Positions 6,380 through 41,900 of a stretch of 64,000 bases of DNA are shown here, piece by piece; the first letter of the stretch is position 1, and every line of letters begins with the position of its first letter. The DNA lies in NCBI GenBank assembly GCA_964409335.1, contig CAYPCW010000002.1:26637-90636 (forward strand), given 5' to 3'. Below the pieces are notes generated by a model. That model saw only the letters and a program-made list of their open reading frames with translations. It did no database searches and was not told the DNA's origin. The stretch is from an uncultured bacterium. GTDB lineage: Bacteria > Fidelibacterota > Marinisomatia > SCGC-AAA003-L08 > JACNLC01. The position numbers and the translations under genes are program-made.

Positions 6380-6414
6380 CCATCCACGCACCGGTACCAA
6401 CCGCAGGGATAAAC

Positions 6415-6882: not shown

Positions 6883-7091
6883 TTAAACCACGATGCGAAC
6901 GGCAAGTTGGGTGGCTTTCGACGCTTCGCCTGATCTTACCGGTTTTCCAATACCTAAAAATCACCCATCAGACTCCACCCGCCATTTTTCCAGAGTCAAT
7001 TCGTTCTGTCTGCAATACATTCATCAAGTCATTCACCCATCACCGCCGCAAAACACCGTAAATTTTCCCCGTTAAAGAAAGCTCCAAAACC

Positions 7092-10386: not shown

Positions 10387-11787
10387 ATGAAAAATAATTC
10401 TTCGCTCAGGATACAGTTTTTAGGCGGGGCAAGTACGGTCACGGGATCAAAAACATTAGTGGAGGTTGGCAACTGGCGCATCCTTATCGACTGCGGTTTA
10501 TTTCAGGGATTAAAACAATTGCGATTATTGAACCGTGAGCCGTTCCCGGTCAATCCAGCATCGGTTGACGCGATTATTCTGACCCACGCCCATCTTGATC
10601 ACTGCGGATACATTCCCCTCATTGTGAAGTCTGGGTTTACGGGAGCTATTCATTGTACAGCGCCAACGCTTGACCTGACGGGTATCATTTTGAAAGACAG
10701 TGGAAAAATTCAGGTGGAAGATGCACATCATGCGAATTTGAACCGGTACACCAAACATGATAAGGCAATACCTCTGTACACTCAGGAAGATGCTGAGATC
10801 GCCATGCAGCAATTTATTCCCCACAACACCAATGAATGGGTGGGCATTGATGACAATTTAAAATTTCGCTTTTTAAACAACGGTCATATACTCGGCTCTG
10901 CGTTCGTTGAATTACAGGCCGGTGAAAAACGTTTTCTATTTTCAGGCGATATGGGACGGACGGATCCGCTGTTAATGTATCCGCCTGTGAACGTCTTTAG
11001 CACTGACTATCTGATTCTTGAATCCACCTACGGGGATCGGCTACACCCGGAGGAAGACGCCAAAACTGTTCTGTTAGATATCATTAAAAGTACGTTCCGG
11101 AAAAATGGTATACTGATGATCCCCACATTTGCCGTGGAGCGTGCGCAGGAGATCATTTATCTTTTATACCGACTGAAAATAGAAAAAAAGCTACCAAATA
11201 TCCCGATCTACCTTGATTCCCCGATGGGGATAAACTCCTCGAATGTTTTTGAGGCGTACCCCATCTGGCAAATTATCCCAAATGACCAAATCAATTCGAT
11301 GTATGATATTGTCAAATTCATTATGAATTTTGAACATTCAAAGATGGTCGTGGCAGACAATAAGCCTAAAATTGTCCTTGCCGGGAGCGGCATGCTGGAG
11401 GGCGGACGCATCCTCCATTACCTGAATAACCATATCAATGATGAAAAAAATACATTGTTGTTTGTGGGATATCAGGCAGCTGGCACTCGTGGTCATTCAA
11501 TTCTTAATGGTGCAGGCGAGATTAAATATTATGGATCGTATCATAAAATTAAATGCCGGGTGAGGGTAATTTCTTCAATGTCCGCTCATGCGGATCAGCA
11601 GGAGATTATCACGTGGCTTCGTCATTTTAAGGAAGAACCGGAGCGCATATTTCTCAACCATGGTGATCCCCATGCCATTGATGCATTACGGGTCAAGATC
11701 AATAATGTGTTGGGGTGGGACTGCCAAATCCCCCGAATGCACTCTGTATATCATCTTGTCAAGGCTCCGGAGACGGCTGAGAATTAA
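10387..11787 (+). CDS. MBL-fold metallo-hydrolase, beta-CASP (RNA-metabolising) family
   Basis: 466 aa with the HAHLDHCG metallo-beta-lactamase motif. The downstream beta-CASP-type layout ends with SAHADQQEI and NHGDP. Confidence 0.8.
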   Translation: MKNNSSLRIQFLGGASTVTGSKTLVEVGNWRILIDCGLFQGLKQLRLLNREPFPVNPASVDAIILTHAHLDHCGYIPLIVKSGFTGAIHCTAPTLDLTGIILKDSGKIQVEDAHHANLNRYTKHDKAIPLYTQEDAEIAMQQFIPHNTNEWVGIDDNLKFRFLNNGHILGSAFVELQAGEKRFLFSGDMGRTDPLLMYPPVNVFSTDYLILESTYGDRLHPEEDAKTVLLDIIKSTFRKNGILMIPTFAVERAQEIIYLLYRLKIEKKLPNIPIYLDSPMGINSSNVFEAYPIWQIIPNDQINSMYDIVKFIMNFEHSKMVVADNKPKIVLAGSGMLEGGRILHYLNNHINDEKNTLLFVGYQAAGTRGHSILNGAGEIKYYGSYHKIKCRVRVISSMSAHADQQEIITWLRHFKEEPERIFLNHGDPHAIDALRVKINNVLGWDCQIPRMHSVYHLVKAPETAEN

Positions 11788-12037
11788 CCGGGATTTGATG
11801 ATATTGAGTATTTTAGTAAAAGACTATCCTTTTCAGGGATCTGGCTGTGATTCTATTTCCTACGGAGTCATATATTTTATGTAATCGAACGAATAAAAAA
11901 ACGAAAAAATGATATTGAAACAATTACAGATAGTATCCGGATTTTTTGATAAAAGGAAAAAAATGCCAGGATTGTTTCAAATATTCAGAGTCATTTCGTT
12001 TTTACTGTAAAAGACGAAAAGATATCGTCTTATGGAG

Positions 12038-12598
12038 TTACGCTCTGCCGGTCGGACCACCGAAATCCATGATATCGATACCAAAGTGGCTGGCAGCGTT
12101 TTTCCATTTCTTATTGTCTGGGGTATTGAATATGAACCCCGGAACAGCCGGCATCAACAGCCAGTCTCCGTTTTCAATTTCCCGTTCAAGCTGACCGGCG
12201 CCCCAGCCGGAATATCCCAGCGTAAACTGAAATTTTCTGGGTCCTTTGTCATAGAGGATATCATCAATGATCTCCGGATTTACCGTCAAGGAGATTTCAT
12301 CCGATATTGATAAGGTTCCATCAATGGAATAGCTGTGGTCATGGAGAAAAATCCCCTGTTCAATTCTGACGGGTCCTCCGAAATATACCATCGGATGGGG
12401 TTTTGCCTTATCCAATTGTGTCTGTCTGAGAATGTCTTCTACTTTGTTGGTTATCATCGGTTTGTTGATGATCAACCCCATGGCTCCCTTGTCATCGTGA
12501 TCACAAAGATATACTAATCCCTGACGGAAAATAACATCTATCATATGGGGCATAGCTATGAGAAAATGGTTGGAGTAATTATCCATATTTGTCCACAA
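12038..12598 (-). CDS. YqgE/AlgH family protein (UPF0301)
   Basis: 186 aa: NHFLIAMPHMIDVIFRQGLVYLCDHDDKGAMGLIINKP...GYSGWGAGQLE, which is characteristic of the family. Confidence 0.85.
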   Translation of the reverse strand: MWTNMDNYSNHFLIAMPHMIDVIFRQGLVYLCDHDDKGAMGLIINKPMITNKVEDILRQTQLDKAKPHPMVYFGGPVRIEQGIFLHDHSYSIDGTLSISDEISLTVNPEIIDDILYDKGPRKFQFTLGYSGWGAGQLEREIENGDWLLMPAVPGFIFNTPDNKKWKNAASHFGIDIMDFGGPTGRA

Positions 12599-12764
12599 TT
12601 TAAACAGAATTCAGTCGAATTAAGAAATAAATATCACCTAAAATATAGTTCGATTTTCAAACGCCATAACTGGATTAAAACCGGTAACGCTTTTTATTTC
12701 AAATATTTACACCTAATTTCCGATAATATTCAACTCGAATTCCCGGATCATAAAAAGGAACGCA

Positions 12765-13499
12765 ATGAACAAAATGACCATAATGCCCTTGCCCTGGAGG
12801 TTGATCCAGGCGACCTTTGTAAGCCGCCCCAACCGGTTTATCACCATTATTGAGTTGAATGGCATTGAATATGAAAGCCACCTGCCGGACCCGGGCCGAC
12901 TGAAGGAATTATTACAACCGGGTGTAAAACTCATGGTGAAAGCAGAACCGGGTGAACATCGAAAAACCAGGTTTTCTACCCAGGCTGTTTATCTTGGGAA
13001 TACGCTGATTTCCCTGAATTCCTGGCTGCCCAACCGGTTTGTGGATTTCCTCATCGCCGGCGGTCATCTCCCGTGGCTGCGGGGATGGTCTGTGTGCCAG
13101 CGTGAGTTTACAATCGGACACAGCCGCTTTGATTTTCTCCTCAAGAATGGAAAAGATACCCGGTTATTAGAAGTAAAATCCGTTACGCTGGTGGAAGGTA
13201 TGATAGCGAAATTTCCGGATGCCGTGACGGTTCGGGGCGCCAGACACCTGAATCATCTGGCGGAATTGAGTAAAAGCGGACGAAAATCAGGAGTGTTATT
13301 TGTGATCCAGCGGGAAGATGCCACGCTATTCCGGCCGCAGTGGGAACGAGATCCGAAACTGGCGTATGCCTTGGTAGCCGCCCATGAATCGGGTGTGGAT
13401 GTGCGCGTGATAAAAATGAAAATGACCCCAGAACTGTTAATCTACCTGGGCGAGATTCCATGGGATCTAAGGCGCACCGGGGATATTCCCAAAATCTGA
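12765..13499 (+). CDS. sfsA: sugar fermentation stimulation protein SfsA (nuclease-fold DNA-binding protein)
   Basis: 244 aa: FVSRPNRFI...LLEVKSVTL...FPDAVTVRGARHLNHL, the SfsA signature. Confidence 0.88.
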   Translation: MNKMTIMPLPWRLIQATFVSRPNRFITIIELNGIEYESHLPDPGRLKELLQPGVKLMVKAEPGEHRKTRFSTQAVYLGNTLISLNSWLPNRFVDFLIAGGHLPWLRGWSVCQREFTIGHSRFDFLLKNGKDTRLLEVKSVTLVEGMIAKFPDAVTVRGARHLNHLAELSKSGRKSGVLFVIQREDATLFRPQWERDPKLAYALVAAHESGVDVRVIKMKMTPELLIYLGEIPWDLRRTGDIPKI

Positions 13500-19776: not shown

Positions 19777-22700
19777 AGGGACAGGGGTCGTTTTTACCTA
19801 TTTTTTCTTCAACATGCACCGGCTGGACCCGCTGGTGTCGCGTGGGCATGGTACCGGTGGAATGTTGTCCGCCCTGCATAGCTCCGACAGGAACCACTCC
19901 CCCTGCGTCGTCATGTTTATATTGCACATTGACCGCTTGGGGAATCAGAGAAGGTTGTCTTTGCTGGGCTGACCGTATCTGAACTCTGAATATTCTACGC
20001 AATGTTTCACGGTTGGTGTCTTCCATCACATCGGTGAACATGCTGTAACCTTCGGATTTATACTCGATCAACGGATTTTTCTGTCCGTATGCCCGAAGAT
20101 TGATGCCTTCACGAAGTTGATCCATACCGTGAAGGTGTTCCATCCATTTTTCATCGATGGTCTTCAGGATCACAAATTTTTCAAAATCTTCAAATTTATC
20201 CGGATCGACCAATTCTTTCTTTGCAGAAAGTATGGCATTGGAAGCATTCCGGATCATATCCTTCAACTCATCGATTTTGGTGATACCCATTTCATGAGAT
20301 TGGATATTCAGGGAAAATGTAGACAGTAACTCCTGGTTGAGCCCTTCCCAGTCCCATGAGCCGGGGCTATCGGGTTTCGGGCAATAGGCAGCGGTCGCAT
20401 TCTCCAGGTATTCATCCAGGATCTCGTTCAAAAGTTCACCGACATTTTCACCCATCAATGCATAATTACGCCGGTCATAGACAATCTCCCGCTGATTGTT
20501 CATCACATCATCGTATTCCAGAAGGTGTTTCCGGATGCTGTAATTGTGACCTTCAACCTTTTTTTGAGCACGTTCAATAGATTTACTTACCATTGAGTGA
20601 GTAATCACTTCGCCTTCTTCGATTCCGAGACGGTCCATGATCTTTGCCACCCGGTCTGATCCAAACAGGCGCATTAAATCATCTTCTAAGCTGAGATAAA
20701 AAACGGATTCACCCGGATCTCCCTGCCGCCCGGATCGCCCCCGTAACTGAAGATCAATTCGACGGGATTCTGCCCGGCTGGTGCCCAGAATAAACATACC
20801 GCCGAGGCTGCGGGTAGTGTCCGTCAGTTTGATATCCGTTCCCCTGCCTGCCATATTTGTGGCGATGGTGACGGCGGATCGCTGCCCGGCAAGCTGTACA
20901 ACCTCTGCTTCGCGCCGGTGCTGTTTCGCATTCAGAACATTGTGAGGTATTTTGATCCGCCGAAGCATTCTGGACAGGGTTTCTGATTCTTCAACGGAAG
21001 TCGTACCCACTAAAACCGGTTGACCCTTACGGGACAGCTCCTCAATTTTAGTCACTGCGGAATTGTATTTTTCCCGCTTTGTTCTGAAAATCTGATCCTC
21101 GTTGTCCTTTCGGATGATTGCCACATTGGTAGGGATCTCCACCACATCGAGTTTGTAGATATCCATAAATTCTGAGGCTTCAGTCACGGCGGTCCCGGTC
21201 ATCCCGGCCAGTTTTTCGTACATCCTGAAATAATTTTGGATCGTGATAGTTGCCATCGTTTGGGTTTCTTTTTCCACCTTCACATCTTCTTTGGCTTCTA
21301 ATGCCTGATGAAGACCGTCGCTATACCGCCGGCCATGAAGAACCCGCCCCGTGTGCTCGTCGACGATGAGAACCTTCCCCTCCTGTACGATATAATCTAC
21401 ATCTTTTTCAAACAGAGTGTAGGCTTTCAACAGTTGGTTGATGGCATGAATTCTATCGCTTCGACTGGCGTGAAGCGCCTGGGCTTCGTCCTTTTTTTGA
21501 ATTTTTTCCGCTTCGGATAATTCCGGATCAACATCAATGTCATGCAGCATCTCCGGCAGGTCAGGGATAATAAAATCTTCAGGGTTAGATGGTGAAAGTG
21601 TATTTCTGCCCATCTCGGTCAGGTCAATGACATTTGATTTTTCGTCCACGCTGAAATACAATTGTTCGTCTACCTCATTCAACTTTTTATCCCGGATGAA
21701 TTCGCTCTCAACCGATCGGACAAGCTGCTTTGTCCCCTGTCGCTGGAACAACTTCATCAGTCGTTTATTTTTGGGGATTCCCCGGTTGGCAGTGAGGAGG
21801 TTAATCCCCGCTTCCTTTTCTTTTTCGCTAAGACCCATTCTGGAAGATTCATCTTCGCCGATACTGTCCAGAATTTGTTCCCCGGCAGCGACCAGTTCAT
21901 TGACCAAATATGACTGTTTTCTCACCAGGTTTTCAACCAGGGATTTATGCTCCTGATATTGACGGTTCATGGGGGCATTCACCTGCCCGGATATAATCAG
22001 GGGTACGCGGGCTTCATCGATCAGAACCGAGTCGACTTCATCGACGATTGCATACACATGTCCCCGTTGCACCTGGTCTTCCCGCGAAATTGCCATATTA
22101 TCCCGAAGATAGTCGAAACCGAACTCCTGATTCGTTCCGTAGGTGATATCCCGGTTATACATCTCACGTCGTTGCTGAGAGTTCATCTGATTGAGTATAC
22201 AACCAACGGTAAGTCCGAGAAATTGATAGAGATGTCCCATCCATTGACTGTCACGTTCCGCAAGGTAATCATTGACAGTAATTATATGTATGCCTCTGTC
22301 GGTGAGTGCATTGAGAACAATGGGTAAGGTGGCAACCAGCGTTTTTCCTTCACCGGTTTTCATTTCGGTGATTTTCCCCTGATGCAGAACAATCCCACCC
22401 ATCAACTGAACATCGTAATGGACCATTTCCCAGGCGATCTCCTGCCCCATGACTTTAAACAGAGAACCGGATAACCGGCGGGCTGCATCTTTAATGATCG
22501 CAAACACTTCTGGCACATACTCATTCAGAGCATTTTGTTCGGCCTTATAAATAAAATCATCCAGATCGGTTCGGGTTAAACCATCGGTTTTACCCTGTTT
22601 TCGGGCGCTGATCCGTTGAGCGTCAACATCCTTCTTCACCGACATTAATTTATCCCTCAGCGCCTCATCTGACAATGATACGAGATCGGAATAAAATCGG

Positions 22701-22792
22701 TTGATCTCATCAACGATCGGAATCAGCGTTTTGAGATCTTTGTCGGACTTTTTACCGAAAATACGGGTTACAATATTAGTTATTACAGACAT
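19730..22792 (-). CDS. secA: preprotein translocase ATPase SecA
   Basis: 1020 aa with DEAD-like motor motifs (MKTGEGKTLVA, DEVDSVLIDEAR) and the C-terminal zinc finger CPCGSGKKYKKCHG. Confidence 0.97.
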   Translation of the reverse strand: MSVITNIVTRIFGKKSDKDLKTLIPIVDEINRFYSDLVSLSDEALRDKLMSVKKDVDAQRISARKQGKTDGLTRTDLDDFIYKAEQNALNEYVPEVFAIIKDAARRLSGSLFKVMGQEIAWEMVHYDVQLMGGIVLHQGKITEMKTGEGKTLVATLPIVLNALTDRGIHIITVNDYLAERDSQWMGHLYQFLGLTVGCILNQMNSQQRREMYNRDITYGTNQEFGFDYLRDNMAISREDQVQRGHVYAIVDEVDSVLIDEARVPLIISGQVNAPMNRQYQEHKSLVENLVRKQSYLVNELVAAGEQILDSIGEDESSRMGLSEKEKEAGINLLTANRGIPKNKRLMKLFQRQGTKQLVRSVESEFIRDKKLNEVDEQLYFSVDEKSNVIDLTEMGRNTLSPSNPEDFIIPDLPEMLHDIDVDPELSEAEKIQKKDEAQALHASRSDRIHAINQLLKAYTLFEKDVDYIVQEGKVLIVDEHTGRVLHGRRYSDGLHQALEAKEDVKVEKETQTMATITIQNYFRMYEKLAGMTGTAVTEASEFMDIYKLDVVEIPTNVAIIRKDNEDQIFRTKREKYNSAVTKIEELSRKGQPVLVGTTSVEESETLSRMLRRIKIPHNVLNAKQHRREAEVVQLAGQRSAVTIATNMAGRGTDIKLTDTTRSLGGMFILGTSRAESRRIDLQLRGRSGRQGDPGESVFYLSLEDDLMRLFGSDRVAKIMDRLGIEEGEVITHSMVSKSIERAQKKVEGHNYSIRKHLLEYDDVMNNQREIVYDRRNYALMGENVGELLNEILDEYLENATAAYCPKPDSPGSWDWEGLNQELLSTFSLNIQSHEMGITKIDELKDMIRNASNAILSAKKELVDPDKFEDFEKFVILKTIDEKWMEHLHGMDQLREGINLRAYGQKNPLIEYKSEGYSMFTDVMEDTNRETLRRIFRVQIRSAQQRQPSLIPQAVNVQYKHDDAGGVVPVGAMQGGQHSTGTMPTRHQRVQPVHVEEKIGKNDPCPCGSGKKYKKCHGRIT

Positions 22793-22983
22793 GTTTACTC
22801 ATCATTTTCAAGTGAAATCTATATGAAACGGAAAGCCAAAGTTACCACTAATTCACGGATCGGACGGTGGAAAATTCCACGGGTAATCCACAGATCCCGG
22901 CCTGTTTTCATGATCTCACTATGAACGGATATTCGGTTTTCAAGTGCTATGAAATATGGCTGATAACCGTTAAATTAAATACA

Positions 22984-24387
22984 ATGTATGCGCTGCAAAT
23001 CATAGATGACGATGCGAATGTTCTCCATGCGCTCTCGGAGTTCTTTGAGCAAGAAGGCTACGAAGTATTCAAATATAAAAATGGCGAAGAAGCTCTGTCT
23101 GCCATCAATACGGATCTCCCTAACGTCGTATTATTAGATTTGAAACTCCCCGGCATGGACGGATTTTCGATCCTTCATAGAATTAAACAATCCCACCCCG
23201 AAATAGAAGTCATTATCATCACCGGAAACGTGGATGTCATGTCCGGTGTGAAAGCGATGAAGCTTGGTGCAATTGATTATGTGACCAAACCATTCAATCT
23301 TGATGAGGTGAGTGTATTGGTCGGGAAGGCTATATCAGCCCAAAAGCAGTATGAACAACTCGTGTATCTCCAAAAAGAAAAAAAACTAATTTCAGGTGAG
23401 ATCATCGGTACCAGTGATGCCATGCAGAAAGTATTTAAATTTATCGATCAGGTTGCCGAATCCCCCAGAACTTCCGTATTGATTCACGGTGAAACGGGAA
23501 CCGGCAAAGAACTGGTTGTCAAAGCGATTCATTATAACAGTTCACGAGCCGACAAACCTTTCATTGAGATCAATTGTTCTGCATTTCAAAGTACACTTCT
23601 GGAATCAGAATTATTCGGGTATGAGCCGGGTGCATTTACCGGAGCAAAAAATCGAAAGAAAGGTCTGCTCGAACTGGCGGATGGCGGTTCCTTCTTCCTG
23701 GACGAAATCGGGGAAATGGATCTGGGACTGCAGGTGAAATTGCTAAAGGTGATTGAGGAACAATCTTTCCGGCGGATTGGCGGCACAAAGCAGATTAAAA
23801 TCGATACCCGGATATTAAGCGCCACTTCCAGAGACCTGGTAAAGGAGGTGGAAGAGAACCGGTTTCGCAAAGACCTTTTCTACCGGTTAAATGTGGCGTC
23901 CATTAAACTACCGCCGCTTCGGGAGCGAGGCGAGGATATTCTGCTATTGGCAGAACATTTCATTCGTCAGTATAACCGGGAGTTCAAACGCAATATCGGA
24001 GGGTTGGACCATCTGGCGATGGAACAGTTCAAAAGGTATTCATGGCCGGGTAATGTAAGAGAACTGAGAAATGTGATCGAGCGTGCAATGCTGTTTGAAA
24101 AAGGCACAATGATCCGCCCGGACAGCATTAATATTGCTGCCGCATCCGTTAAAGATCATAATCCCGCCCCATTCGAAAATAATAAAGATGATCTTGAGAG
24201 CTTATATTTGAAATTAGACATTTCAAAAGAGCGCTATACGTTAATGGATTTTGAAAAACAGCTCTTTCTTAAAGTATTGGAACTAACAAAAGGGAATCAA
24301 TCCAAAGCCGCCGGAATTCTGGGAATCTCCCGGCAGCGGATGTCCTACAGAGTGAAAGTGCTCGGTATCTCGCCGGATATTAATTAA
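22984..24387 (+). CDS. sigma-54-dependent response regulator (NtrC-family enhancer-binding protein)
   Basis: The REC domain is intact (IDDD, LLDLKLPGMDG, IIITG, VTKP). The AAA+ domain has GETGTGKE and the sigma-54 contact loop GAFTGA. A Fis-type HTH lies at the C-terminus. Start trimmed from 22867 to MYALQIIDDD at 22984. Confidence 0.9.
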   Translation: MYALQIIDDDANVLHALSEFFEQEGYEVFKYKNGEEALSAINTDLPNVVLLDLKLPGMDGFSILHRIKQSHPEIEVIIITGNVDVMSGVKAMKLGAIDYVTKPFNLDEVSVLVGKAISAQKQYEQLVYLQKEKKLISGEIIGTSDAMQKVFKFIDQVAESPRTSVLIHGETGTGKELVVKAIHYNSSRADKPFIEINCSAFQSTLLESELFGYEPGAFTGAKNRKKGLLELADGGSFFLDEIGEMDLGLQVKLLKVIEEQSFRRIGGTKQIKIDTRILSATSRDLVKEVEENRFRKDLFYRLNVASIKLPPLRERGEDILLLAEHFIRQYNREFKRNIGGLDHLAMEQFKRYSWPGNVRELRNVIERAMLFEKGTMIRPDSINIAAASVKDHNPAPFENNKDDLESLYLKLDISKERYTLMDFEKQLFLKVLELTKGNQSKAAGILGISRQRMSYRVKVLGISPDIN

Positions 24388-24414
24388 TTCAACTACCCTT
24401 ATTTAATCAGCCAT

Positions 24415-25143
24415 ATGATTTTAAAACAAAACGTTCATTCCGATGACCCGCCCTGGTCTTTTCAGCAAAAAGAATTAGATTTTATTGACCGGATTTTGAC
24501 CTATTCTACGATGGCATTTTGTCGTGAAACTTCACACACGATGAATAATTTATTGACATCCCTGACCATTTATATTTCAATGTTAAAGAACAATCTGAAC
24601 AAAGGGAATATTGATAAAGCGTATAACGGTATTGAGGCTATCGAAAAATCGCTGAATAATATCACTGAATTCACCACTAAACTCTCCCGGAAAGCAAATT
24701 ATACGCAGAACGTTATATCGGTAAAGCCAAATTCGGAAGTCAGGGATGCGTTGACATTATGCAGCATTCTCTTCAAAGAATCCCGATGGTCGCTCATTAC
24801 CGAGTTTTGTGAAATGGATTCGAAATTGCAGACCGATTCATCCATTATACAGATGGCTCTGGTCACCTGGTTTTCCATGAATCTGAAAATCTATAATTTC
24901 CCTTCGATGATCGTCCAGACCATGTGGGAACCCGAGGGACAGCAATACGCCATATCCTGTACAGTCACGGCGAAGAAAGAAGATAGCGCATCGGCGATTA
25001 TTTATCGTGAATCCGGGGAAAGAGCGGGTGAGATCCCCTTAATTACCATGAAACGGATCATCCATTCAAACTTTAAATTTGCCGATCTTAAAATCATCCG
25101 GTCTGAGGGAAACGATTTTATACTTACCCTGTCGCCCGTGTAA
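24415..25143 (+). CDS. histidine-kinase-like protein with H-box but no recognisable ATP-binding boxes (pseudo-kinase or phosphotransfer protein candidate)
   Basis: 242 aa. SHTMNNLLTSL (His41, nt 24535-24537) parallels the H-box AHDFNNLLQVV of the hybrid kinase at 27795. The C-terminus ends kinase-like (GNDFILTLSPV). I found no DxGxG (G1) or GxGxG (G2) motif anywhere in the protein. Confidence 0.45.
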   Translation: MILKQNVHSDDPPWSFQQKELDFIDRILTYSTMAFCRETSHTMNNLLTSLTIYISMLKNNLNKGNIDKAYNGIEAIEKSLNNITEFTTKLSRKANYTQNVISVKPNSEVRDALTLCSILFKESRWSLITEFCEMDSKLQTDSSIIQMALVTWFSMNLKIYNFPSMIVQTMWEPEGQQYAISCTVTAKKEDSASAIIYRESGERAGEIPLITMKRIIHSNFKFADLKIIRSEGNDFILTLSPV

Positions 25144-25218
25144 ATCTTTCCGGTTCCCGGTATCCTCATTGCGATGATCCTGTCCAGCGCATCGAATATT
25201 TAATACACGCCGCCCTCA

Positions 25219-25260
25219 TTGACGACAACGAAATTGTCAAAATATTTTGACACGTGTCAA
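25219..25260. promoter_or_regulatory. cluster of overlapping dyad symmetries on TTGAC/GTCAA half-sites (candidate enhancer/UAS)
   Basis: A perfect 18-bp palindrome TGTCAAAATATTTTGACA lies at 25235-25252. A perfect 14-bp palindrome TTGACACGTGTCAA lies at 25247-25260. A TTGAC-N12-GTCAA dyad lies at 25219-25240. The cluster is about 170-200 nt upstream of the -24/-12-like elements. Confidence 0.4.
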
Positions 25261-25429
25261 TAATTTTTGATGCAAACCAAACGATCACCCCCTGATGTGC
25301 TCATCAATACCATGAGGATTTGGTTAAATTTCAATAAAAATAAAATAATTGTAAAATCCTCATAATTTCAATAATATCAACTATTAAACGTGAAGTTGGT
25401 GAAGGGGATAAAAATTTAATCAGGTCTTT

Positions 25430-25475
25430 TGGTAATGATCCTGCCAATCTTTCTCATTTTGGTACGGTAATTGAA
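25430..25475 (+). promoter_or_regulatory. two tandem sigma-54 (-24/-12)-like promoter candidates
   Basis: TGGTAATGATCCTGCC (25430-25445) has the correct GG-N10-GC spacing. TGGTACGGTAATTGAA (25460-25475) matches TGGcACGr-N3-TTG but has A in place of the -12 C. These are the best GG-N10-GC candidates I found by eye in an intergenic region. They lie about 130-170 nt upstream of the 25604 ATG, which has an AGGAG ribosome-binding site. Confidence 0.3.
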
Positions 25476-25603
25476 ATTAGTACGTTACCCGTTTCAAATC
25501 TGAGGGTTTTTACCGGGGGATATGTAGAATTATGCTATTTATTATTGCAATGGTAGCCCTATCATATTAACTATAATGAAAATTCAAAAAAAGAGGAGAA
25601 GAA

Positions 25604-26170
25604 ATGAATTTTAGTGCATTAAGTAAACACGTAGCAGGCAGCTTATTTATTTTATTGTTGTTGTTTGGTTGCAGCGAAAATCCGATTTTGGGTGTACCCT
25701 CACAGCCTGCAGGGATTCCGACGGATCAAATGTCATTTGTTCAGTGGACGCCTGAAATGGTGTCTTTGCTTCAATCGACAGCCCGTCAGGGTCTCGCCAG
25801 CCATATTATTCTCCCCGGTGTGGGTGGTACCGTCGGCGGGAATCAGACTTATGGAAATAGTGTATACATTCCCGGAGACGCCATCTCGGAAGCAACCGAA
25901 TTTTCAGTAGAAGTCCTGTGTGTTGATAGTCACCAGCAGTGCGGCGCCGGTGTGGAATTTCTGCCCGGAACCGATTTTGAAGCCCCGGTTCAAATCACCC
26001 TCTCTTTCGAATACCTGAATCTCAGCGATCAGCAGATTGAAGATCTTTACATCTATTTTAGCCAGGACGGTAATTTCTGGTACCCGATTGACGGATTTGA
26101 AATAAATGATGAGAATGAAACCATTTCATTCTGGATAGATCATTTTACAGTATATGCATGGGAATTTTAA
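25604..26170 (+). CDS. lipoprotein of unknown function
   Basis: 188 aa with a lipobox signal, LLLLFGCSENP. An AGGAG ribosome-binding site precedes the ATG. I recognise no family. Confidence 0.6.
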   Translation: MNFSALSKHVAGSLFILLLLFGCSENPILGVPSQPAGIPTDQMSFVQWTPEMVSLLQSTARQGLASHIILPGVGGTVGGNQTYGNSVYIPGDAISEATEFSVEVLCVDSHQQCGAGVEFLPGTDFEAPVQITLSFEYLNLSDQQIEDLYIYFSQDGNFWYPIDGFEINDENETISFWIDHFTVYAWEF

Positions 26171-26179
26171 GAACGGTGT

Positions 26180-27451
26180 ATGGGAGATATCATGACCAAT
26201 AACAATACACAACTCCAATCTTTCCTCGCGGAAGTTCTGGACAGGGCAGCGTCGGTCTGCAGCGATGAGTTCCTGAAATACTTCAGGTTTATACAGCAGG
26301 AAAGGGAACGTCTGTTAGACAGCGTCTGGCACGAAATCCCCGCCGGGGAACAGACGCCGGATATGAAGCAGTTTGTCTTTAAAGAAATTGATTTTGATTC
26401 CATCGTTACCCATTCTAAAAGTTACATTACAAATGCTGAGGATTATTTCAGACTGGTCTTCGATATCGCCGTCATCGCCATCAACTACGGATACTTTGTA
26501 AAAGCGGCGCTGCTTCTGAACCGAATTGTTAAAAATAACCAAAAAGGTATTGATGAGCGGTTAAAAGCCAATTCTTACAAAAAACTGGGTAAAATTCACT
26601 TTTATAAGAACAACTTTATTTTAGCAGAAGAATCTATAGAACAAAGTCTAAATTACTTTTCTATTTTAAAAGATACATTGGAAATTGCCAGGAATAAAAA
26701 CTCTTTGGGCATCATCCGTGTCGAGAAGAACCTTCCTGTTGAAGGCAAACTTTTGTTTTTGGAAGCCCAAAAACTTTCAGGTGACTTTAATGACGCTCAG
26801 TTAACCATGAAAATACTGATCAATCTGGGTATTGTCAGCCATCGCCTGGGTGAACTGGGTGAAGCCATGGAATACTTTCAGGATGCCCTGAAGCTGGTGA
26901 ACGGGGACGCAAATAAGGCACAGCGCGCCAGTGTCCTGCACAATATTGGCGTCGTGTATAAATCGAAAGAAGAATACGGGAAAGCCAGCGCATACTTCAT
27001 GAAATCGATTTCATTGTGTAAGGAAACGTATAATGTTTACCAAAAAGGTCTTTCATATCTCGAATATGCTCATGTAACGGCACATATGCGCGATCTGCCA
27101 AAGGCGATGGCATTGGCGACAACCGCGTTCCCGATATTTTCTGAACTGGGTGCAAAAATGCATATCGCAGAAGTGTATAAACTATATGGAATGATCAACC
27201 GGATGGGAGGCAAATACGACATCGCGCTTTCTTACCTTGAGAACAGTAAGCGGATCAATCATGAGTACAACAATCACTTTAACCTGGGTGAGACGTATTT
27301 TGAAATGGGTGAATATTACCGGGCAACGGGAGATAAAAAGCAATCGCTGGAAAATTATCAGGAGTCCATAAAGCAATTTCAATTTATCCAGGCCAATAAA
27401 AAAGCAGCTGATGTTGAATATGTTATGAACAGGCTGCCGTTGTCGAATTAG
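26180..27451 (+). CDS. tetratricopeptide-repeat (TPR) protein, cytoplasmic
   Basis: 423 aa. About 120 aa of unassigned N-terminal region is followed by repeated 34-aa TPR-like units (A/Y/L periodicity, for example ALEYFQDALKL and GKASAYFMKSISL). An alternative start lies at 26192. Confidence 0.7.
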   Translation: MGDIMTNNNTQLQSFLAEVLDRAASVCSDEFLKYFRFIQQERERLLDSVWHEIPAGEQTPDMKQFVFKEIDFDSIVTHSKSYITNAEDYFRLVFDIAVIAINYGYFVKAALLLNRIVKNNQKGIDERLKANSYKKLGKIHFYKNNFILAEESIEQSLNYFSILKDTLEIARNKNSLGIIRVEKNLPVEGKLLFLEAQKLSGDFNDAQLTMKILINLGIVSHRLGELGEAMEYFQDALKLVNGDANKAQRASVLHNIGVVYKSKEEYGKASAYFMKSISLCKETYNVYQKGLSYLEYAHVTAHMRDLPKAMALATTAFPIFSELGAKMHIAEVYKLYGMINRMGGKYDIALSYLENSKRINHEYNNHFNLGETYFEMGEYYRATGDKKQSLENYQESIKQFQFIQANKKAADVEYVMNRLPLSN

Positions 27452-27560
27452 ATGACCTCGCCATGGCTTTCAAATAAATTATTAATTTAAGTCCGCCGTA
27501 CAGATCAATAATTGGTTCGTGTTATGGAGAGATCAATGATTGGTTAGTGTGGTTTATCGT

Positions 27561-27602
27561 AGCAGAAAGCGGCATCGGATTGACGTCGCTTTCTGCTTTT
27601 TT
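27561..27602 (+). terminator. rho-independent terminator after the TPR gene
   Basis: An 11-bp perfect stem, AGCAGAAAGCG (27561-27571) with CGCTTTCTGCT (27587-27597), is followed by a T-run to 27602. Confidence 0.7.
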
Positions 27603-27794
27603 ATCCTGTTTTCAGGTCATTGTAAAATCTCATTTTCAGAATGATCCCGCCACCCGTTAACCGGGATTGCACCATCGGGGGAATTGTTGAGATAGAAGGG
27701 TCGTGATTCAATCAAAATAACGGTTACAGATTATGATAAAAAATGTTTAATTTGAAAATTATAGATTAAGATTATTTTACAGTTCTACTGAAAC

Positions 27795-29312
27795 ATGAAC
27801 CATTCTGAAATTCAAGACACAGCCGCCGCCAACAATTTCAAAATTTCTTCCCAGGAGATATTGAACTATCTGACCGATATTATCGTTCTGTGCGATCCGG
27901 AATATACCATCAAGACAAGTAATCGATCGGCAAATGTGATCTATGGCGTGGGAGACTCTGTCGTCGGGGAGAAATGCTACGAGGTCATTCGGGGTAAGTC
28001 CGGTCCTTGCGAAGACTGCCCCTTGCAGGAGTCTATCCGTGACCGGCGATTGATCCCCATCGAAAACTATGATGAACGGATCGGGAAATACATGGAGGAG
28101 AAAACGCATCCGGTCATGGATCCTGAAGGGAAACTGGTGGGATTTGTGTTGGTGGTAAAGAATGTGACTCATGACAGGGAGATTAAAGACCTCTCTGTTC
28201 AGACAAAAAAATTATCCGCCATCGGACGGATCAGCGCCGGCGTCGCTCACGATTTTAATAATTTACTCCAGGTCGTCCTGGGACGGGTGAGGCTTCTTGA
28301 AAAACTGGTGAAGGATAAAAATATTATTGAACAATTGCGGATCATAGAATCAGCAGCCAATAACGGCGCTGCCACCGTAAAAAAAATGCAGGAATTCACC
28401 AGAATCAGCAAGGATGATCATTTGCTCCCGGTGAATATCAGCAATTTAATCAAAGATGCCGTTCAACTCACCAGTCACGAACTTCGGGAATTCAGCGAAC
28501 GAAACGGAATTCTGGTCCAAATCGTTGAGAATATTGACGATGACCTGTTTATAAAAGGAAACGGCACCGACCTGCAAAATGCCGTCACCAATATTATTTT
28601 TAATGCTGTCGATGCGATGCCTGATGGCGGCGTATTGTTCATCAAATTACATCTCGTTGAAGACACAGTTACGATTTCCTTTATTGATACCGGGATCGGA
28701 ATGACAGAGGAAACAAAAGAGCGAATATTTGATCCATTTTACTCAACGAAGGGGGTGGAAGGAAACGGTCTGGGGATGAGTGAGGTTTATGGGATTGTCA
28801 AACGATCCCAGGGTAAAATTTCCGTAATGAGTGAGCAGGGGAAAGGAAGTACCATTCTCATGGAATTCCCACAGACATCAGATCGGGATCAACCGGCGGA
28901 ACAACCGGTGATCGTCCCGAATGGATTATACCGGATTCTCGTCATCGACGATGAACAATTTGTTCTGAATGTCATTGAGGATTTACTCACCGATCTGGGA
29001 CACATGGTTTATGGATTCACATCCGCGAAACAAGCGTTGGAAAAATTGCATGAGACAGAATACGATCTGGTGATAACCGATTTAGGCATGCAGGAAATGA
29101 CCGGTAAAGAGGTCGCCGAAAACGTGAAACGATTCTCACCCCAACTGCCAGTGATTCTGTTATCAGGTTGGGAGGTAAATCTTCAGGAGGACATAGAACT
29201 GGGAAGTGTCGTGGATTTCAGTATCACCAAACCCTTTCAAATGGATACTATTCAGCAGACGATTCATAAAGCCATAACCAAATATCAGGATCGGGAAGAC
29301 CCTGAATTATAA
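27795..29312 (+). CDS. hybrid sensor histidine kinase (PAS-HisKA-HATPase-REC)
   Basis: The PAS-like N-terminus has a C-x10-C-x2-C motif. The H-box is AHDFNNLL, the N-box NIIFNAVDAM, G1 DTGIGM and G2 GNGLGM. The C-terminal receiver is intact (VIDDE, LVITDLGM, LLSGW, ITKPF). Confidence 0.9.
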   Translation: MNHSEIQDTAAANNFKISSQEILNYLTDIIVLCDPEYTIKTSNRSANVIYGVGDSVVGEKCYEVIRGKSGPCEDCPLQESIRDRRLIPIENYDERIGKYMEEKTHPVMDPEGKLVGFVLVVKNVTHDREIKDLSVQTKKLSAIGRISAGVAHDFNNLLQVVLGRVRLLEKLVKDKNIIEQLRIIESAANNGAATVKKMQEFTRISKDDHLLPVNISNLIKDAVQLTSHELREFSERNGILVQIVENIDDDLFIKGNGTDLQNAVTNIIFNAVDAMPDGGVLFIKLHLVEDTVTISFIDTGIGMTEETKERIFDPFYSTKGVEGNGLGMSEVYGIVKRSQGKISVMSEQGKGSTILMEFPQTSDRDQPAEQPVIVPNGLYRILVIDDEQFVLNVIEDLLTDLGHMVYGFTSAKQALEKLHETEYDLVITDLGMQEMTGKEVAENVKRFSPQLPVILLSGWEVNLQEDIELGSVVDFSITKPFQMDTIQQTIHKAITKYQDREDPEL

Positions 29313-38964: not shown

Positions 38965-41900
38965 ATGAAAAGAGCGTTAATAATCCTTGTCATCACGATG
39001 CCTTTTTTCCTGTTTGCACAGGAATTTGGGAAGGTATCAGGAAAAGTAGAAGCGGGTGGAGGCGGACGAATTCTGGCAGGCGCCAGTATTGTCATCGAAG
39101 GTACTTCCTTTGGTTCGGCTGCCGATGAACACGGTAACTATACGATCCTGGGGGTACCTGTAGGGACGTATGTAATCCGGGCGGACTACATTGGATACCA
39201 ATCGGTCAAAGTATCCGGCGTCACGGTTTCAGCCAACCTTACAACGACCGTTGATTTTAGTCTGAAAATATCAGCAATCAAAGGAGATGTGGTAGAGATC
39301 GTCGCAGAAAAGCCACTTATTAATCAGAACTCTACCAATACCACACGGATCATCGATTCCCAAACCATCAAAAATCTTCCTTTGCGTGGCGTTGAAGCAG
39401 TTATCGCACTTCAGACCGGAACGGTTGCCGATGATGAGAATATCTATGTCAGAGGGTCGAGAGCCGGTGATGTCGCCTATTATGTTGATGGCGTGTACAT
39501 GAACAATTCGTGGGATCTGACCAATTCGAGTACGGTCTCCAACAACGCTATGGAAGAAGTTCAATTTCAGTCAGGTGGGTTTAGCGCTGAATATGGTAAT
39601 GTGAATGGTGGTGTGGTCAACACGACGACCCGTACCGGTAGTGACAAATTCTCATTGTCCGGCGAACTGATTTCCGGAGTCGGGAAATCCGGTGCTGATG
39701 TCAGCAAAGGGTTATACTCTTACGGGTATAATCTCTTTAATATCAGCGCAGGCGGACCCCTGACTCAGAATGTAAAATACTTCTTCAATTTTGAAGGAAG
39801 AACCACGGATGATCCAAACCCGTCACGGGAACCCTTCCACAAAATAGACCGAAACGATATTACTTGGGGCGGTATAACCAAAACAGAAGCCTATGCGGGA
39901 ACCGACAGCGCATTTACCTACTGGACCGGCGACCTTTCCATTAACAATACCCCTGTTGGAGGATGGGATGAACACCTCTATGACCTGCCGGACGCGACCG
40001 AAGTCTATGGATCCACGGAAACTCTGAACTCTATTCTTGGCATGTATATCAGATCAGGCTCTGACACCCTGGGGCTCGCCGGATATAGTTTGGTAGACCT
40101 CACCAAAGTGAACAGAACCGGTCTTTCTTACAATGCGGTTGATGGTGAAGATGCTGTTCTCAGCGGGTACTCCAATTACCGGACTGTTTATGGTGCCAAA
40201 CCCAATGCAGGGAGTGACAGGCTGACTTTTACCGGTAATTTGTTGTTCGATATATCCGGTATTCGGTTCAAAGTAGGGGGTCTGTTCAACAGTGATAAAG
40301 GGAATTTTTATAACCATAACTATAGTCTGGTGAATAGCAATAACAATGCACAATATGAAGAATCAACCCTTTCACTTTTTGCAAATATGACCTATTCATT
40401 ATCCTCAAATTCATATTTTAAATTAAATTTCTCAACATTTGGTTATAACTATGAAGAGGGTGACGGTAGATACTGGGATAATATAATGGGTTATGGGACC
40501 ATTGGAAATAACTCCTATCTGGTAAATTGGGGACAGAATCCCACCGCTATTCAGGGATTGGCTAATTTTACCGGCTATGGTGCGGTTTATGATGACTATT
40601 CTCTGAATAAAACGAATTATTTTTCATTGAAAGGGGATTACCTGAACCAGATGGGAGACCATGAAATAAAAGCCGGGTTCGACTATCGGAAAAACACCAT
40701 CAAATATTACAGAGTCGCACAGCCTATCGAAATTGCTGAACGTTTTCATCTCGCAGGCGAAACCGGGACGGTCATAGACGATCAATGGACCTATCTGACC
40801 TATATGAATGCCTACACAGAAAACCTGGGATATTCAATTGACGGAAAGAGTAGCGGAGCAGGATTTCAGGATGCGGGTGAACCGGTGATCTTTGGAATGT
40901 ATATCCAGGATAAAATCGAGCTGGAAGATATGATCGTCAATGTAGGCTTACGATATGACTTATTTGATGCCGCCACACAGGAAGCTGCCGACTGGAGAGA
41001 TATTTGGTTGACAGACGGCCATATTGACCGGCAATTGTCTCAATATAGGGACGTAAAGGCTGAAACATATTTAAGTCCCAGAGTTGGATTTTCATTTCCG
41101 GTGACGGACCAGACAAAGTTTCATGCCGAGTATGGTAAATTCACCCAACATCCTATCCTGAACAGACTGTACCTTTCCGACAGCCGGCTTGCAGCCAATC
41201 TGTCCCAGGGAAACATGACGGTTTCGCCAAATCCAAGTCTGAAACCCGAACGTACGACCCAGTACGAAATTGGCTTCACTCAGCAGGTAGGGAATTTTGC
41301 CGCTTTGGATATCACGGGATTTTTCAAGGAAGTCCGCGATTATACCATGTTGACCAATCTGGCAGGCGCCAAGAAAAACGGGTCCGAATTTATTTGGGCA
41401 CAATATGTAAACGGTGATTTTGGTGTTGTGAAAGGGATTTCCTTCAACCTGAATATGAGGCGCGTGAATGGTCTGATGGCCAATGCCAGCTATACCCTTT
41501 CTTTCGCTGAAGGAACAGGCTCTGATCCTCTGGATAACTGGAATATCGCCTGGACAGGTGACACCTACCCGACGATGATCAACCCACTTGAATATGACCA
41601 AAGACATACCGGTTCGATCATGCTTGATTACCGGTTAGGGGTACAGGGCAGCCTTCTGGCAAATACAGGTATAAACTTCCTGTATCAGTTTGGTTCGGGA
41701 ACCGCTTTTACACCCTCAAGAATCGAATCTGATGTATTTGGTCGTGGATGGTATACGCCGATTGCAGCGATCAATTCTGCTTACAAGCCATGGACCAGTA
41801 CCCTGGATATGAAAATTGACAGAGATGTTCAATTGGGTGCGTACTCTGCTAATATTTATCTCTGGGTGACCAACCTGACAGACAGATCAAATGTTGATGA

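Follow-up and report, generated by a model that had tools for sequence, protein, structure and literature searches.

What does a protein do that carries the phospho-acceptor histidine of a sensor kinase, has none of the boxes that bind ATP, and is encoded directly behind a sigma-54 activator? This question is raised by a gene of an uncultured bacterium of the Fidelibacterota, which lies in a stretch of 64,000 nucleotides that was analysed as a whole and is called the window below. A preliminary description of the locus, made from the sequence alone, had proposed a Spo0B-like phosphotransfer protein standing between a hybrid kinase and the activator, with a dedicated phosphatase as the alternative. 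Our analysis leaves about an even chance that the protein is a ChpT/Spo0B-like second-histidine (H2) relay, probably reversible and arranged like luxO-luxU.

Predicted fold, ATP-binding boxes and family of the pseudokinase

The gene (Table 1) starts with ATG, stops with TAA and encodes 242 aa. Its coordinates and the gap of 27 nt to the activator gene agree with what had been described, and both H-boxes, SHTMNNLLTSL with His41 in this protein and AHDFNNLLQVV in the hybrid kinase, as well as the kinase-like C-terminal end GNDFILTLSPV, could be read in the ORFs. The codon of His41 (CAC, 24535-24537) is located inside RETSHTMNNLLTSL, and the protein ends with ...SEGNDFILTLSPV.

Table 1 Features of the pseudokinase locus, with positions counted in the window.
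Feature	Position	Strand	Basis
Sigma-54 enhancer-binding response regulator, REC-AAA+-HTH_8	22984..24387	+	Pfam and NCBIfam matches, orthologue lengths
Pseudo-histidine-kinase gene, 242 aa	24415..25143	+	ORF and translation, homologues, predicted fold
DHp-like helical hairpin, residues 13-92	24451..24690	+	AlphaFold secondary structure, sub-threshold HisKA match, HK853 DHp alignment
H-box E38-L50 (ETSHTMNNLLTSL)	24526..24564	+	Family alignments, HK853 alignment
Catalytic-domain-like alpha/beta domain, residues 100-239	24712..25131	+	AlphaFold, Foldseek, motif scan, HK853 alignment
GEIPLITMKRII, degenerate remnant at the place of the G2 box and the next helix	25027..25062	+	Alignments
Perfect 18-bp palindrome TGTCAAAATATTTTGACA overlapping TTGACACGTGTCAA	25235..25260	.	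Kept in orthologous loci
TGGTACGGTAATTGAA, putative sigma-54-type -24/-12 element (GG-N10-GA)	25460..25475	+	Locus comparison
188-aa predicted lipoprotein, lipobox LLFGC	25604..26170	+	Orthologous in all three lineages
423-aa TPR protein, conserved cassette member	26180..27451	+	Domain and homologue searches
Soluble PAS-HisKA-HATPase_c-REC hybrid kinase	27795..29312	+	Pfam/NCBIfam matches, motifs

The AlphaFold model of the protein (pLDDT 81) consists of a DHp hairpin, with helices at residues 13-61 and 67-92 and a near-invariant Gly64 in the turn, and of a kinase-type alpha/beta domain, which reaches a pLDDT of about 90 across most of its length. A relative of 18% identity was predicted with the same long helical hairpin and alpha/beta domain (pLDDT 76). 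The best PDB matches of the pseudokinase model are true histidine kinases, covering DHp-CA (Foldseek E 6.5e-10, probability 1.00), and the DHp-CA neighbours of both models include CckA, ZraS, HK853 and DesK as well as the atypical kinases RetS and DivL, while ChpT and Spo0B are absent from the top 50 structural matches of either. In addition, the family profile matched the DHp and N-box region of Thermotoga HK853 (E 3.6e-5), whereby His41 falls on the phospho-acceptor His260. From the profile match and the Foldseek match we conclude that the resemblance to histidine kinases exceeds chance, in line with the kinase-like architecture that the preliminary description had suspected.

The alpha/beta domain, by contrast with that of a canonical sensor kinase, has no N-box Asn, no G1 DxGxG, no F-box and no G2 GxGxG. 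The earlier remark that the DxGxG and GxGxG motifs are missing was borne out by a regex scan of the whole protein, in which neither D.G.G nor G.G.G, nor even G.G, occurred. Across the family, D.G.G occurs in none and G.G.G in one of 20 members, the N-box Asn positions in the HK853 alignment are substituted, and an N...N or N..N pattern is neither found at the N-box helix of the window protein nor recurrent there among its relatives; the set of ATP-binding boxes is thus missing in 20/20 members. The remnant GEIPLITMKRII is kept in two of three lineages and gone in the third, and in the 20-sequence alignment one lineage has lost GEIPL, with the catalytic-like domain decaying further there. Judged from these sequences, the domain is predicted to be no longer able to bind ATP. 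It is accordingly hard to credit the protein with an unconventional ATP pocket that would make it an active kinase and the true cognate partner of the activator. With roughly 19 residues, the segment from the last sheet strand to GEIPL does have about the length that separates G1 from G2 in the hybrid kinase, so that a lid-like loop exists, but this loop is poorly predicted and deleted in one lineage, the N-box Asn, the G1 Asp, the F-box and the G2 glycines are missing in every lineage, the residue at H+1 is non-acidic, and a sensor domain is lacking.

Profile searches gave a similar picture. HisKA was the sole recurrent Pfam match, found in 8 of 17 members and always below threshold (best E 2e-4; residues 38-87 in the window protein); no Pfam or NCBIfam family matched the pseudokinase above threshold, and no member scanned with Pfam matched HATPase_c. 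Likewise, the ChpT family PF10090 was not matched up to E 10 among 17 members, SPOB_a and SPOB_ab were not matched in any member, and ChpT and Spo0B chains were absent from the PDB sequence matches of the family profile. Hpt (PF01627) was not matched in family members either, and its monomeric four-helix bundle differs from the two-helix hairpin plus alpha/beta domain found here. By sequence, the protein belongs to none of the ChpT, Spo0B and Hpt families. What it has in common with a canonical sensor kinase is the DHp hairpin with an H-box His, and not the ATP boxes, the HATPase_c profile or the acidic residue at H+1, which is Thr in the window protein; a kinase-like DHp joined to an ATP-blind Bergerat-like domain is, on the other hand, the architecture of ChpT. 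The gene product is most likely a soluble pseudokinase derived from a histidine kinase, which we infer to be dimeric. Of the phosphotransfer reading in the preliminary description, the parts based on fold, His41, gene pair and ATP-motif loss have gained support, and each computational check that it had suggested turned out favourable; the label "Spo0B-like" may describe how the pseudokinase works, not where it comes from.

The family comprises 17 clusters among 1.8 billion representatives and has no annotation; the source databases label its members "hypothetical protein", and all named records are from Marinimicrobia/Fidelibacterota. A search for loci with a back-translated H-box DNA pattern yielded three in GTDB species genomes and three in JGI metagenomes, from which we conclude that the family is rare. 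His41, Asn44 and Asn45 are its only invariant residues (20/20 members, down to 17% identity), so that the His41 conservation on which the earlier proposal depended is given, while the remaining protein surface drifts to 17-25% identity. Of the 20 members, only two (P0019, P0022) have Glu at position H+1; the other 18 have Ser, Thr, Ala or Gln there. In HisKA proteins, an acidic residue at H+1 is needed for autokinase activity and Asn or Thr at H+4 for phosphatase, but not kinase, activity (PMC3510030); Asn45 at H+4 therefore marks phosphatase competence, which is not the same as activity. Since nothing but the His and the two Asn is invariant, and one lineage shows further decay of the catalytic-like domain, selection appears to preserve phospho-histidine chemistry in this family.

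The five-gene cassette and its hybrid kinase

The pseudokinase gene is part of a cassette with the order activator, pseudokinase, lipoprotein, TPR protein and PAS hybrid kinase-REC, which is kept in three lineages with differing outer flanks (secA, a rotamase, others). Wherever the gene immediately upstream of the pseudokinase could be identified, it encodes a sigma-54 activator. Conservation is not limited to the gene pair noticed at first but extends to the entire cassette with its hybrid kinase. Activator, pseudokinase and hybrid kinase are the only two-component proteins among the window ORFs scanned; ten further large ORFs of the window contained no other two-component gene. Other lineages show additions: a conventional PAS-GAF kinase is encoded just upstream of the activator in one locus (L018), and elsewhere a REC-HisKA_2 kinase or a stand-alone REC occurs, the latter as a free REC gene in L017.

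The activator gene probably starts at the ATG at 22984 (467 aa) and not at the GTG at 22867 (506 aa), since 467 aa lies in the size range of the orthologues (458-467 aa). Its REC domain has the canonical residues (Asp52, Thr80, Tyr99 and Lys102, numbered in the 467-aa form). Activator and pseudokinase are probably co-transcribed, and the operon that is activated probably begins with the lipoprotein gene. Upstream of it, the palindrome TGTCAAAATATTTTGACA is a candidate activator-binding site, and TGGTACGGTAATTGAA is putatively assigned as a promoter from its sequence; this element is nearly invariant in L001 and L003 (one change), and its sigma-54-type spacing recurs as TGGCACGGGGTTTGAC in three of four loci of a distant lineage, with the variant TGGCATGCGATTTGTC (-12 GT) in L015. 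A terminator scan of 22700-27850 gave four sites, which is at shuffle level (shuffle mean 4.6). Sigma-70 promoter-like sites in the same region are commoner than in shuffles (23 vs 13.2, sd 3.3) and are scattered on both strands, with none marking a transcription unit. For the TPR protein, an identity as aspartate phosphatase of the Rap type was considered and rejected: Rap chains were matched (6t3h, profile E 1.8e-10), but designed TPRs, LGN and others rank higher, which makes the match unspecific.

The hybrid kinase has the H-box GVAHDFNNLLQVV, with His152 in AHDFNNLL, together with G1 (DTGIG at 298) and G2 (GNGLG at 323), and no Hpt domain was found in it by Pfam. Its REC domain carries Asp429, the stretch P-V-I-L-L-S457-G-W459 and Ser476 at the usual aromatic switch position. 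The motif reads LLSGW in five orthologues and LLTGW in L017, L-L-S/T-G-W being invariant, and in all lineages the residue at Lys-3 is Ser or Val in the hybrid RECs, in contrast to Tyr or Phe in the activator RECs. For the REC of CckA, an FxSGY motif ("FATGUY") and a lost aromatic switch have been described, and FATGUY was seen in RECs partnering ChpT- or PhyT-type proteins, although its meaning was left open (PMC9981736). The hybrid REC looks like an intermediary of this CckA type, the type that feeds ChpT, where the agreement in both features, a FATGUY-like beta4 motif and the missing beta5 aromatic switch, is at the level of patterns only.

The similar H-boxes of pseudokinase and hybrid kinase could suggest a recent duplication as the origin of the former. 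This was excluded, since BLASTP found no match between the two (E about 10) and the profile-profile match covers the DHp only (hhalign E 0.0039, probability 8.6%); as far as these comparisons go, H-x-x-N-N-L-L is a class-level motif. The shared H-box class is nevertheless one argument for a quite different role, in which the protein would be a non-catalytic binding partner, either sequestering the activator in the manner of NifL-NifA or forming a DHp heterodimer with the hybrid kinase in the manner of RetS-GacS; in a sub-variant, the catalytic domain of the hybrid kinase would phosphorylate the pseudokinase in trans. RetS and DivL, atypical kinases that act via protein contacts, are among the structural matches, and the gene is probably co-transcribed with that of the activator, in a likely 1:1 ratio. 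We regard such a role as improbable all the same: invariance confined to the H-box His and two Asn, with the rest at 17-25% identity, is unexpected for a pure binder, and targets of the NifA type are without REC, whereas the activator here has a canonical one.

A possible relay and the phosphatase alternative

According to the relay reading, the PAS hybrid kinase would autophosphorylate on His152 and transfer the phosphoryl group to Asp429 of its own REC, from where it would pass to His41 of the pseudokinase and further to Asp52 of the probably co-transcribed sigma-54 activator. The phosphorylated activator would then switch on the adjacent lipoprotein/TPR operon via the sigma-54-type promoter and, as the relay would be reversible like other relays, the pseudokinase could also drain phosphate off it whenever the hybrid kinase works as a phosphatase. 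The predicted fold, the loss of the ATP motifs, the invariant His/Asn/Asn, the conserved cassette and the canonical phospho-acceptor residues in both RECs are observed, and from them we infer each phosphotransfer step and its direction.

Several results support the relay. The H+1 acid required for autokinase activity is lost in 18 of the 20 members, the linkage of activator and pseudokinase and the cassette recur in three lineages, and the hybrid REC looks like an intermediary. Moreover, a relay needs an H2, and the hybrid kinase is without Hpt, while the three cassette proteins are the sole two-component proteins in the scanned ORFs. The relay is weakened by the fact that the family is not related in sequence to ChpT, Spo0B or Hpt, with ChpT and Spo0B outside the top fold matches, and by the PAS-GAF kinase of L018, which could phosphorylate the activator directly. 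In view of the added REC-HisKA_2 kinase or stand-alone REC in other lineages, the wiring may also exceed a linear relay. For helix 1, covariation of the pseudokinase with the two RECs shows all partners changing together, in effectively only three independent lineages.

Invariant Asn45 also fits a phosphatase-only role, and the relay and phosphatase roles are inseparable from sequence. The protein might be what is left of the activator's cognate kinase, with only the HisKA phosphatase function kept; as a negative regulator or dedicated phosphatase it would then reset the activator after the latter's direct phosphorylation by the hybrid kinase or another one. Asn at H+4 combined with a mostly missing H+1 acid is a kinase-minus, phosphatase-plus signature (PMC3510030), an activator followed by a kinase-like gene is the layout of an ordinary cognate pair, a full kinase adjoins the activator in L018, and a precedent exists in RedE, which dephosphorylates RedF (PMC2755868). 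On the other hand, His41 is strictly invariant, the cited ATP-blind DHp proteins ChpT, Spo0B, PhyT and RedE all carry phosphate on His, and PhyT itself was initially mis-assigned as a phosphatase (PMC5898713). The cassette also keeps the hybrid kinase, whose REC looks like an intermediary and as such would require a His further down the chain to accept the phosphate. That direct phosphorylation of a free response regulator by a hybrid kinase is rare counts against the phosphatase role as well, and we consider this role unlikely, if less so than that of a binding partner.

Comparison with known phosphotransfer systems

A close analogue of the proposed relay is ChpT of Caulobacter and Brucella (HPTransfase PF10090), which has a kinase fold, does not bind ATP and shuttles phosphate via His33; as predicted for the pseudokinase, it combines a dimeric DHp hairpin carrying a phosphorylatable His with a Bergerat-like domain unable to bind ATP (PMC3433190). 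The feeder hybrid kinases also resemble each other: that of ChpT combines an H-box of the AHDFNNLL type with a REC of the FxSGY type (PMC9981736), and the one here has AHDFNNLL and LLSGW. However, ChpT stems from another phylum and has no detectable sequence relation to the pseudokinase, its terminal acceptors are CtrA and CpdR and not, as proposed here, a sigma-54 activator of the same operon, and its lid is replaced by helix turns, whereas the length of the lid segment is retained in the pseudokinase.

Spo0B of Bacillus sporulation likewise consists of an H2 hairpin, which dimerises into a four-helix bundle, and a degenerate kinase-like alpha/beta domain. Its H-box HDWMN has the His with Asn at H+4, as in the pseudokinase, but keeps Asp at H+1, where the pseudokinase family mostly has Ser or Thr. 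Spo0B receives its phosphate from the free REC protein Spo0F and not from a hybrid kinase, although a free REC gene is added in the relative L017. The DHp-CA fold is also that of RetS and DivL, whose function is not that of a conventional kinase but the regulation of other kinases. Both are large multi-domain proteins, DivL with Tyr in place of His and RetS acting on GacS. The pseudokinase family, in contrast, has an invariant His, and its partner gene encodes a response regulator. PhyT is of the HWE/HisKA_2 type and RedE keeps a recognisable HATPase_c domain; the pseudokinase family, unlike these, is soluble and HisKA-like, and HATPase_c models do not recognise it.

Nevertheless, PhyT and RedE are kinase-derived, receive phosphate from one REC and act on a second, and in both the boundary between phosphotransferase and phosphatase is blurred (PMC5898713, PMC2755868). 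PhyT, a membrane-anchored degenerate kinase, was initially regarded as a phosphatase, before work showed it to act as a phosphotransferase, and Gottschlich et al. suspect that it originated from a histidine kinase via degeneration of the catalytic domain (PMC5898713). RedE is kinase-like, cannot autophosphorylate and takes phosphate from a REC domain (PMC2755868). The proposed wiring itself resembles that of LuxU-LuxO, in which hybrid kinases feed a small H2 protein that acts on a sigma-54 activator (PMC5394107). LuxU is unlike the pseudokinase in that it is a monomeric Hpt four-helix bundle of unrelated fold. As for gene order, luxU lies directly downstream of luxO.

Characterised kinase-derived, ATP-blind phosphotransfer proteins are few, and those cited here (Spo0B, ChpT, PhyT and, in part, RedE) were all found by genetics in model organisms, while standard annotation overlooks the pseudokinase family and a literature search for Marinimicrobia, two-component systems and sigma-54 found no papers. 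It is tempting, if rather doubtful, to go further and suppose that the Fidelibacterota independently made an ATP-blind His-phosphotransferase from a histidine kinase. This would be a further origin of the Spo0B/ChpT/PhyT type. In a self-contained five-gene cassette, the pseudokinase would be the obligatory gate that phosphate from a cysteine-motif PAS hybrid kinase passes on its way to the sigma-54 activator, with the TPR protein and the pseudo-catalytic domain controlling phosphoryl flow. If true, another sequence-unrelated family, from an uncultured marine phylum and wired to sigma-54, would indicate that the conversion of kinases into relays recurs in evolution. A phosphatase-only remnant would instead represent a natural kinase-minus, phosphatase-plus state, which is otherwise made by mutagenesis. 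The compact syntenic cassette, uniting sensor kinase, putative relay, activator, putative promoter and target genes, could be rebuilt in vitro and serve the study of the mutual recognition of pseudo-catalytic domains and intermediary RECs of the FATGUY type.

A kinase-derived family without ATP-binding boxes

The gene of the pseudokinase, a histidine-kinase-like protein of the window, was found as the preliminary description had it: an ORF from ATG to TAA that starts 27 nt after the end of the activator gene at 24387, with His41 in an H-box (RETSHTMNNLLTSL) and a kinase-like C-terminal end (SEGNDFILTLSPV). No other ORF of at least 60 aa overlaps it in any frame. The reported absence of DxGxG and GxGxG was reproduced by a regex scan, in which D.G.G, G.G.G and G.G were all missing; the same scan located DTGIG at 298 and GNGLG at 323 of the hybrid kinase. 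A cryptic ATP-using kinase, against which the missing ATP boxes speak, is thus highly improbable. The likeness of the H-box to that of the hybrid kinase stands as far as the H-box class goes (GVAHDFNNLLQVV with His152) but not beyond it, since BLASTP found no match between the two proteins and hhalign aligned the DHp region (the helical-hairpin His domain) alone, at a probability of 8.6%.

When all 1.84 billion cluster representatives were scanned, 17 family proteins were found at E <= 1e-3, of about 200-250 aa except for P0017 (330 aa), and a word-indexed search added three further members. Those records that are named all read 'hypothetical protein' and belong to Candidatus Marinimicrobia/Fidelibacterota, and the back-translated H-box DNA pattern occurs in no more than three GTDB species genomes (two Neomarinimicrobiota) and three metagenome contigs. 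From this we conclude that the family is small, phylum-restricted and unannotated. The sole Pfam match of the pseudokinase is a sub-threshold HisKA (E 0.036, residues 38-87), and NCBIfam gave nothing but weak, partial matches to the PgtB, AtoS and CckA kinases. HisKA is also the only recurrent Pfam match among the 17 members (8 of them, each below threshold), none of which matched HATPase_c, HPTransfase (ChpT), SPOB or Hpt.

Across 20 sequences, with identities down to 17%, His41 is invariant together with Asn44 and Asn45 only, and Thr48, Leu50, Leu61 and the hairpin Gly64 are nearly so. At H+1, directly after the His, 18 members have Ser, Thr, Ala or Gln and the remaining two, P0019 and P0022, have Glu. 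A motif scan found the G1 box in 0/20 and G.G.G in 1/20 members, while a remnant at the G2 position, GEIPLxTMKRI, is kept in two lineages and missing in the third. According to Willett and Kirby, the acidic residue at H+1 of HisKA proteins is essential to their kinase activity and dispensable for the phosphatase, and the reverse holds for the Thr or Asn at H+4 (PMC3510030). Read against these roles, the family has lost both requirements for autophosphorylation, the ATP site and, except in P0019 and P0022, the acid at H+1, and has retained those for His-Asp chemistry on the surface of the DHp. The one G.G.G, GTGHG at the G2 position, is that of P0017, which also has an internal insertion of ~76 aa duplicating the helix-2 and linker region.

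The alignment of the family profile with Thermotoga HK853 (E 3.6e-5), which spans the DHp and the N-box helix, places His41 on His260 and Asn45 on Thr264 and shows the N-box Asn positions substituted. The structure prediction that had been proposed gave a DHp hairpin (helices 13-61 and 67-92) followed by a kinase-type alpha/beta domain of five strands (pLDDT about 90; whole AlphaFold model pLDDT 81, pTM 0.74), and the model of P0020, 18% identical to the pseudokinase, has the same layout. Foldseek grouped both models with kinase structures of the PDB comprising a DHp and a catalytic ATP-binding (CA) domain (E 1e-7 to 6.5e-10, probability 1.00), namely YF1/FixL chimeras, ZraS, CckA (5idj), WalK, HK853 and DesK. 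The atypical kinases RetS and DivL are also among the matches, in agreement with a regulator that acts by binding only, as NifL or RetS would, including trans-phosphorylation within a heterodimer; however, conservation focused on His-x-x-Asn-Asn is difficult to square with such a role, which we regard as rather unlikely.

A cassette kept across three lineages

The gene pair proved to be conserved, with the activator adjoining upstream in every locus that has an identifiable upstream gene, including the partial locus L011 (54% identical). The order activator, pseudokinase, lipoprotein, TPR protein, hybrid kinase is kept in the close relatives (L001, L002, L003, L020), in L017 of a middle lineage, where L018 and L022 match across the parts covered by retrieved DNA, and in a distant lineage (L006-L010, L015, L016). 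Outer flanks vary (secA in one case, a rotamase/PRK block in another). Additional signalling genes are a REC-HisKA_2-HATPase kinase 3' of the hybrid kinase in L006, L008, L010 and L015, a free receiver (REC) gene ahead of it in L017, and a classical kinase upstream next to the activator in L018. The cassette appears to act as a hub that takes in further inputs. ATG 22984 (467 aa) is most likely the start of the activator rather than GTG 22867 (506 aa), because its orthologues are 458-467 aa long and align from there.

Coordinates of features in the window and, where named, in relatives' loci
Feature	Position	Strand	Details
Upstream part of mechanical activator ORF	22867-22983		first 39 codons, probably untranslated
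Sigma-54 activator	22984-24387	+	canonical REC-AAA+-HTH_8; Pfam Sigma54_activat E 5e-68
Pseudokinase	24415-25143	+	242 aa
His41 codon	24535-24537		CAC
Palindrome	25235-25260		TGTCAAAATATTTTGACA, perfect, 18 bp; overlapping TTGACACGTGTCAA
Sigma-54-type element	25460-25475		TGGTACGGTAATTGAA; ~200 nt beyond palindrome
Predicted lipoprotein	25604-26170		188 aa; signal peptide with LLFGC
TPR protein	26180-27451		423 aa; present in every cassette
Hybrid kinase	27795-29312		PAS-HisKA-HATPase_c-REC; soluble
TonB-dependent receptor	38965-42075		
1700-aa protein	51809-56911		CarboxypepD_reg repeats, dockerin domain, type IX secretion sorting tail
L017 free REC gene	3876-4379		167 aa
L018 classical kinase	5546-7942		Tll0287-PAS-GAF-PAS
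L010 hybrid kinase orthologue	11597-12847		416 aa; ends early, within REC

The shortened orthologue in L010 probably reflects a frameshift or assembly error of the metagenome-assembled genome. An origin of the window in the FCB group (Marinimicrobia) is in keeping with both the TonB-dependent receptor and the 1700-aa protein. Three Cys in the PAS domain of the hybrid kinase (residues 61-77; C61 and C72-x-D-C75-P-L) are invariant in all orthologues and may form a metal, Fe-S or redox-sensing site, which would then determine the signal that the cassette senses.

The proposed phosphorelay

The two-component stations of the cassette are His152 (H1) and Asp429 (D1) of the hybrid kinase and Asp52 (D2) of the activator, whose REC domain also has Thr80, Tyr99 and Lys102. 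Pfam found no Hpt domain in the hybrid kinase, and the cassette of the window's lineage holds neither an Hpt nor a second ATP-competent kinase, so that the pseudokinase, with its invariant His on the DHp surface, is proposed as the natural H2. Phosphate would pass from His152 to Asp429, on to His41 of the pseudokinase and from there to Asp52, with the pseudokinase as a reversible H2.

The hybrid REC reads P-V-I-L-L-S-G-W, in which LLSGW is invariant in five orthologues (LLTGW in L017). At the site three residues ahead of the conserved Lys, which is Tyr or Phe in the activator REC, the hybrid REC has no aromatic but Ser or Val. It thereby shares both features that Bruderlin et al. described for the intermediary REC of CckA, an FxSGY-type ('FATGUY') motif and a lost aromatic switch (PMC9981736). 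Such motifs occur in REC partners of kinase-derived phosphotransferases, i.e. CckA-REC and CpdR with ChpT, and SdrG with PhyT; the authors suggest that the aromatic residue may touch the partner's CA-like domain, but leave the meaning of the motif unsettled (PMC9981736). The alternative that the pseudokinase is left over from the cognate kinase of the activator and works solely as a phosphatase is unlikely, though likelier than a binding-only role: it agrees with Asn45, with the residue found at H+1 and with L018's classical kinase, yet would leave unexplained why the cassette keeps a hybrid kinase whose REC is of the intermediary type.

Precedents for the relay exist. ChpT, a protein of kinase fold that does not bind ATP, serves as a phosphate shuttle through its His33 (PMC3433190); PhyT, a degenerate kinase, was initially taken for a phosphatase and later proved a phosphotransferase (PMC5898713); and RedE, which is unable to autophosphorylate, takes phosphate from one REC and dephosphorylates another (PMC2755868). 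Based on the conserved His, the CckA-like REC and these precedents, we favour the reversible H2 relay, to which we give about an even chance. The earlier Spo0B-like label thus suits the proposed mode of working, in which ChpT and Spo0B are the closest systems, but not the sequence, which fails the membership tests for ChpT, Spo0B and Hpt as well as the ATP-box test of a true kinase. The proposed wiring is analogous to LuxU-LuxO; luxU lies directly downstream of luxO. In that system, LuxN, LuxQ and CqsS send phosphate by way of LuxU to the sigma-54 activator LuxO (PMC5394107). The relay would be unsurprising in principle. Judged by sequence, the proteins are best classed as pseudokinases derived from HisKA that form an unannotated family in Marinimicrobia; their origin is apparently independent, and the phylum and the proposed terminal partner are new. 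Matches of the TPR family profile in the PDB include Rap aspartate phosphatases (6t3h, E 1.8e-10), ranked beneath generic TPR proteins, and at most hint at a Rap-like checkpoint on the relay.

Spacer elements and putative output

The 460-nt spacer 3' of the pseudokinase gene contains the palindrome and the sigma-54-type element, both kept in L001 and L003. TGGTACGGTAATTGAA has the form GG-N10-GA with TTGA, not TTGC, as its -12 element. The 64-kb window has one match to this pattern, where 0.08 were expected. In the distant lineage the palindromes differ (GGACTATATAGTCC, two copies), and three of four loci have TGGCACGGGGTTTGAC with identical GG-N10-GA spacing, the variant in L015 being TGGCATGCGATTTGTC, with GT at -12. 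These are candidate sigma-54-type promoters and upstream activator sites, through which the activator would drive the lipoprotein/TPR operon. The lipoprotein, which matched no Pfam or NCBIfam family, is orthologous across all lineages (a 390-aa form with an insertion in the distant one) and probably represents the chief output of the activator.
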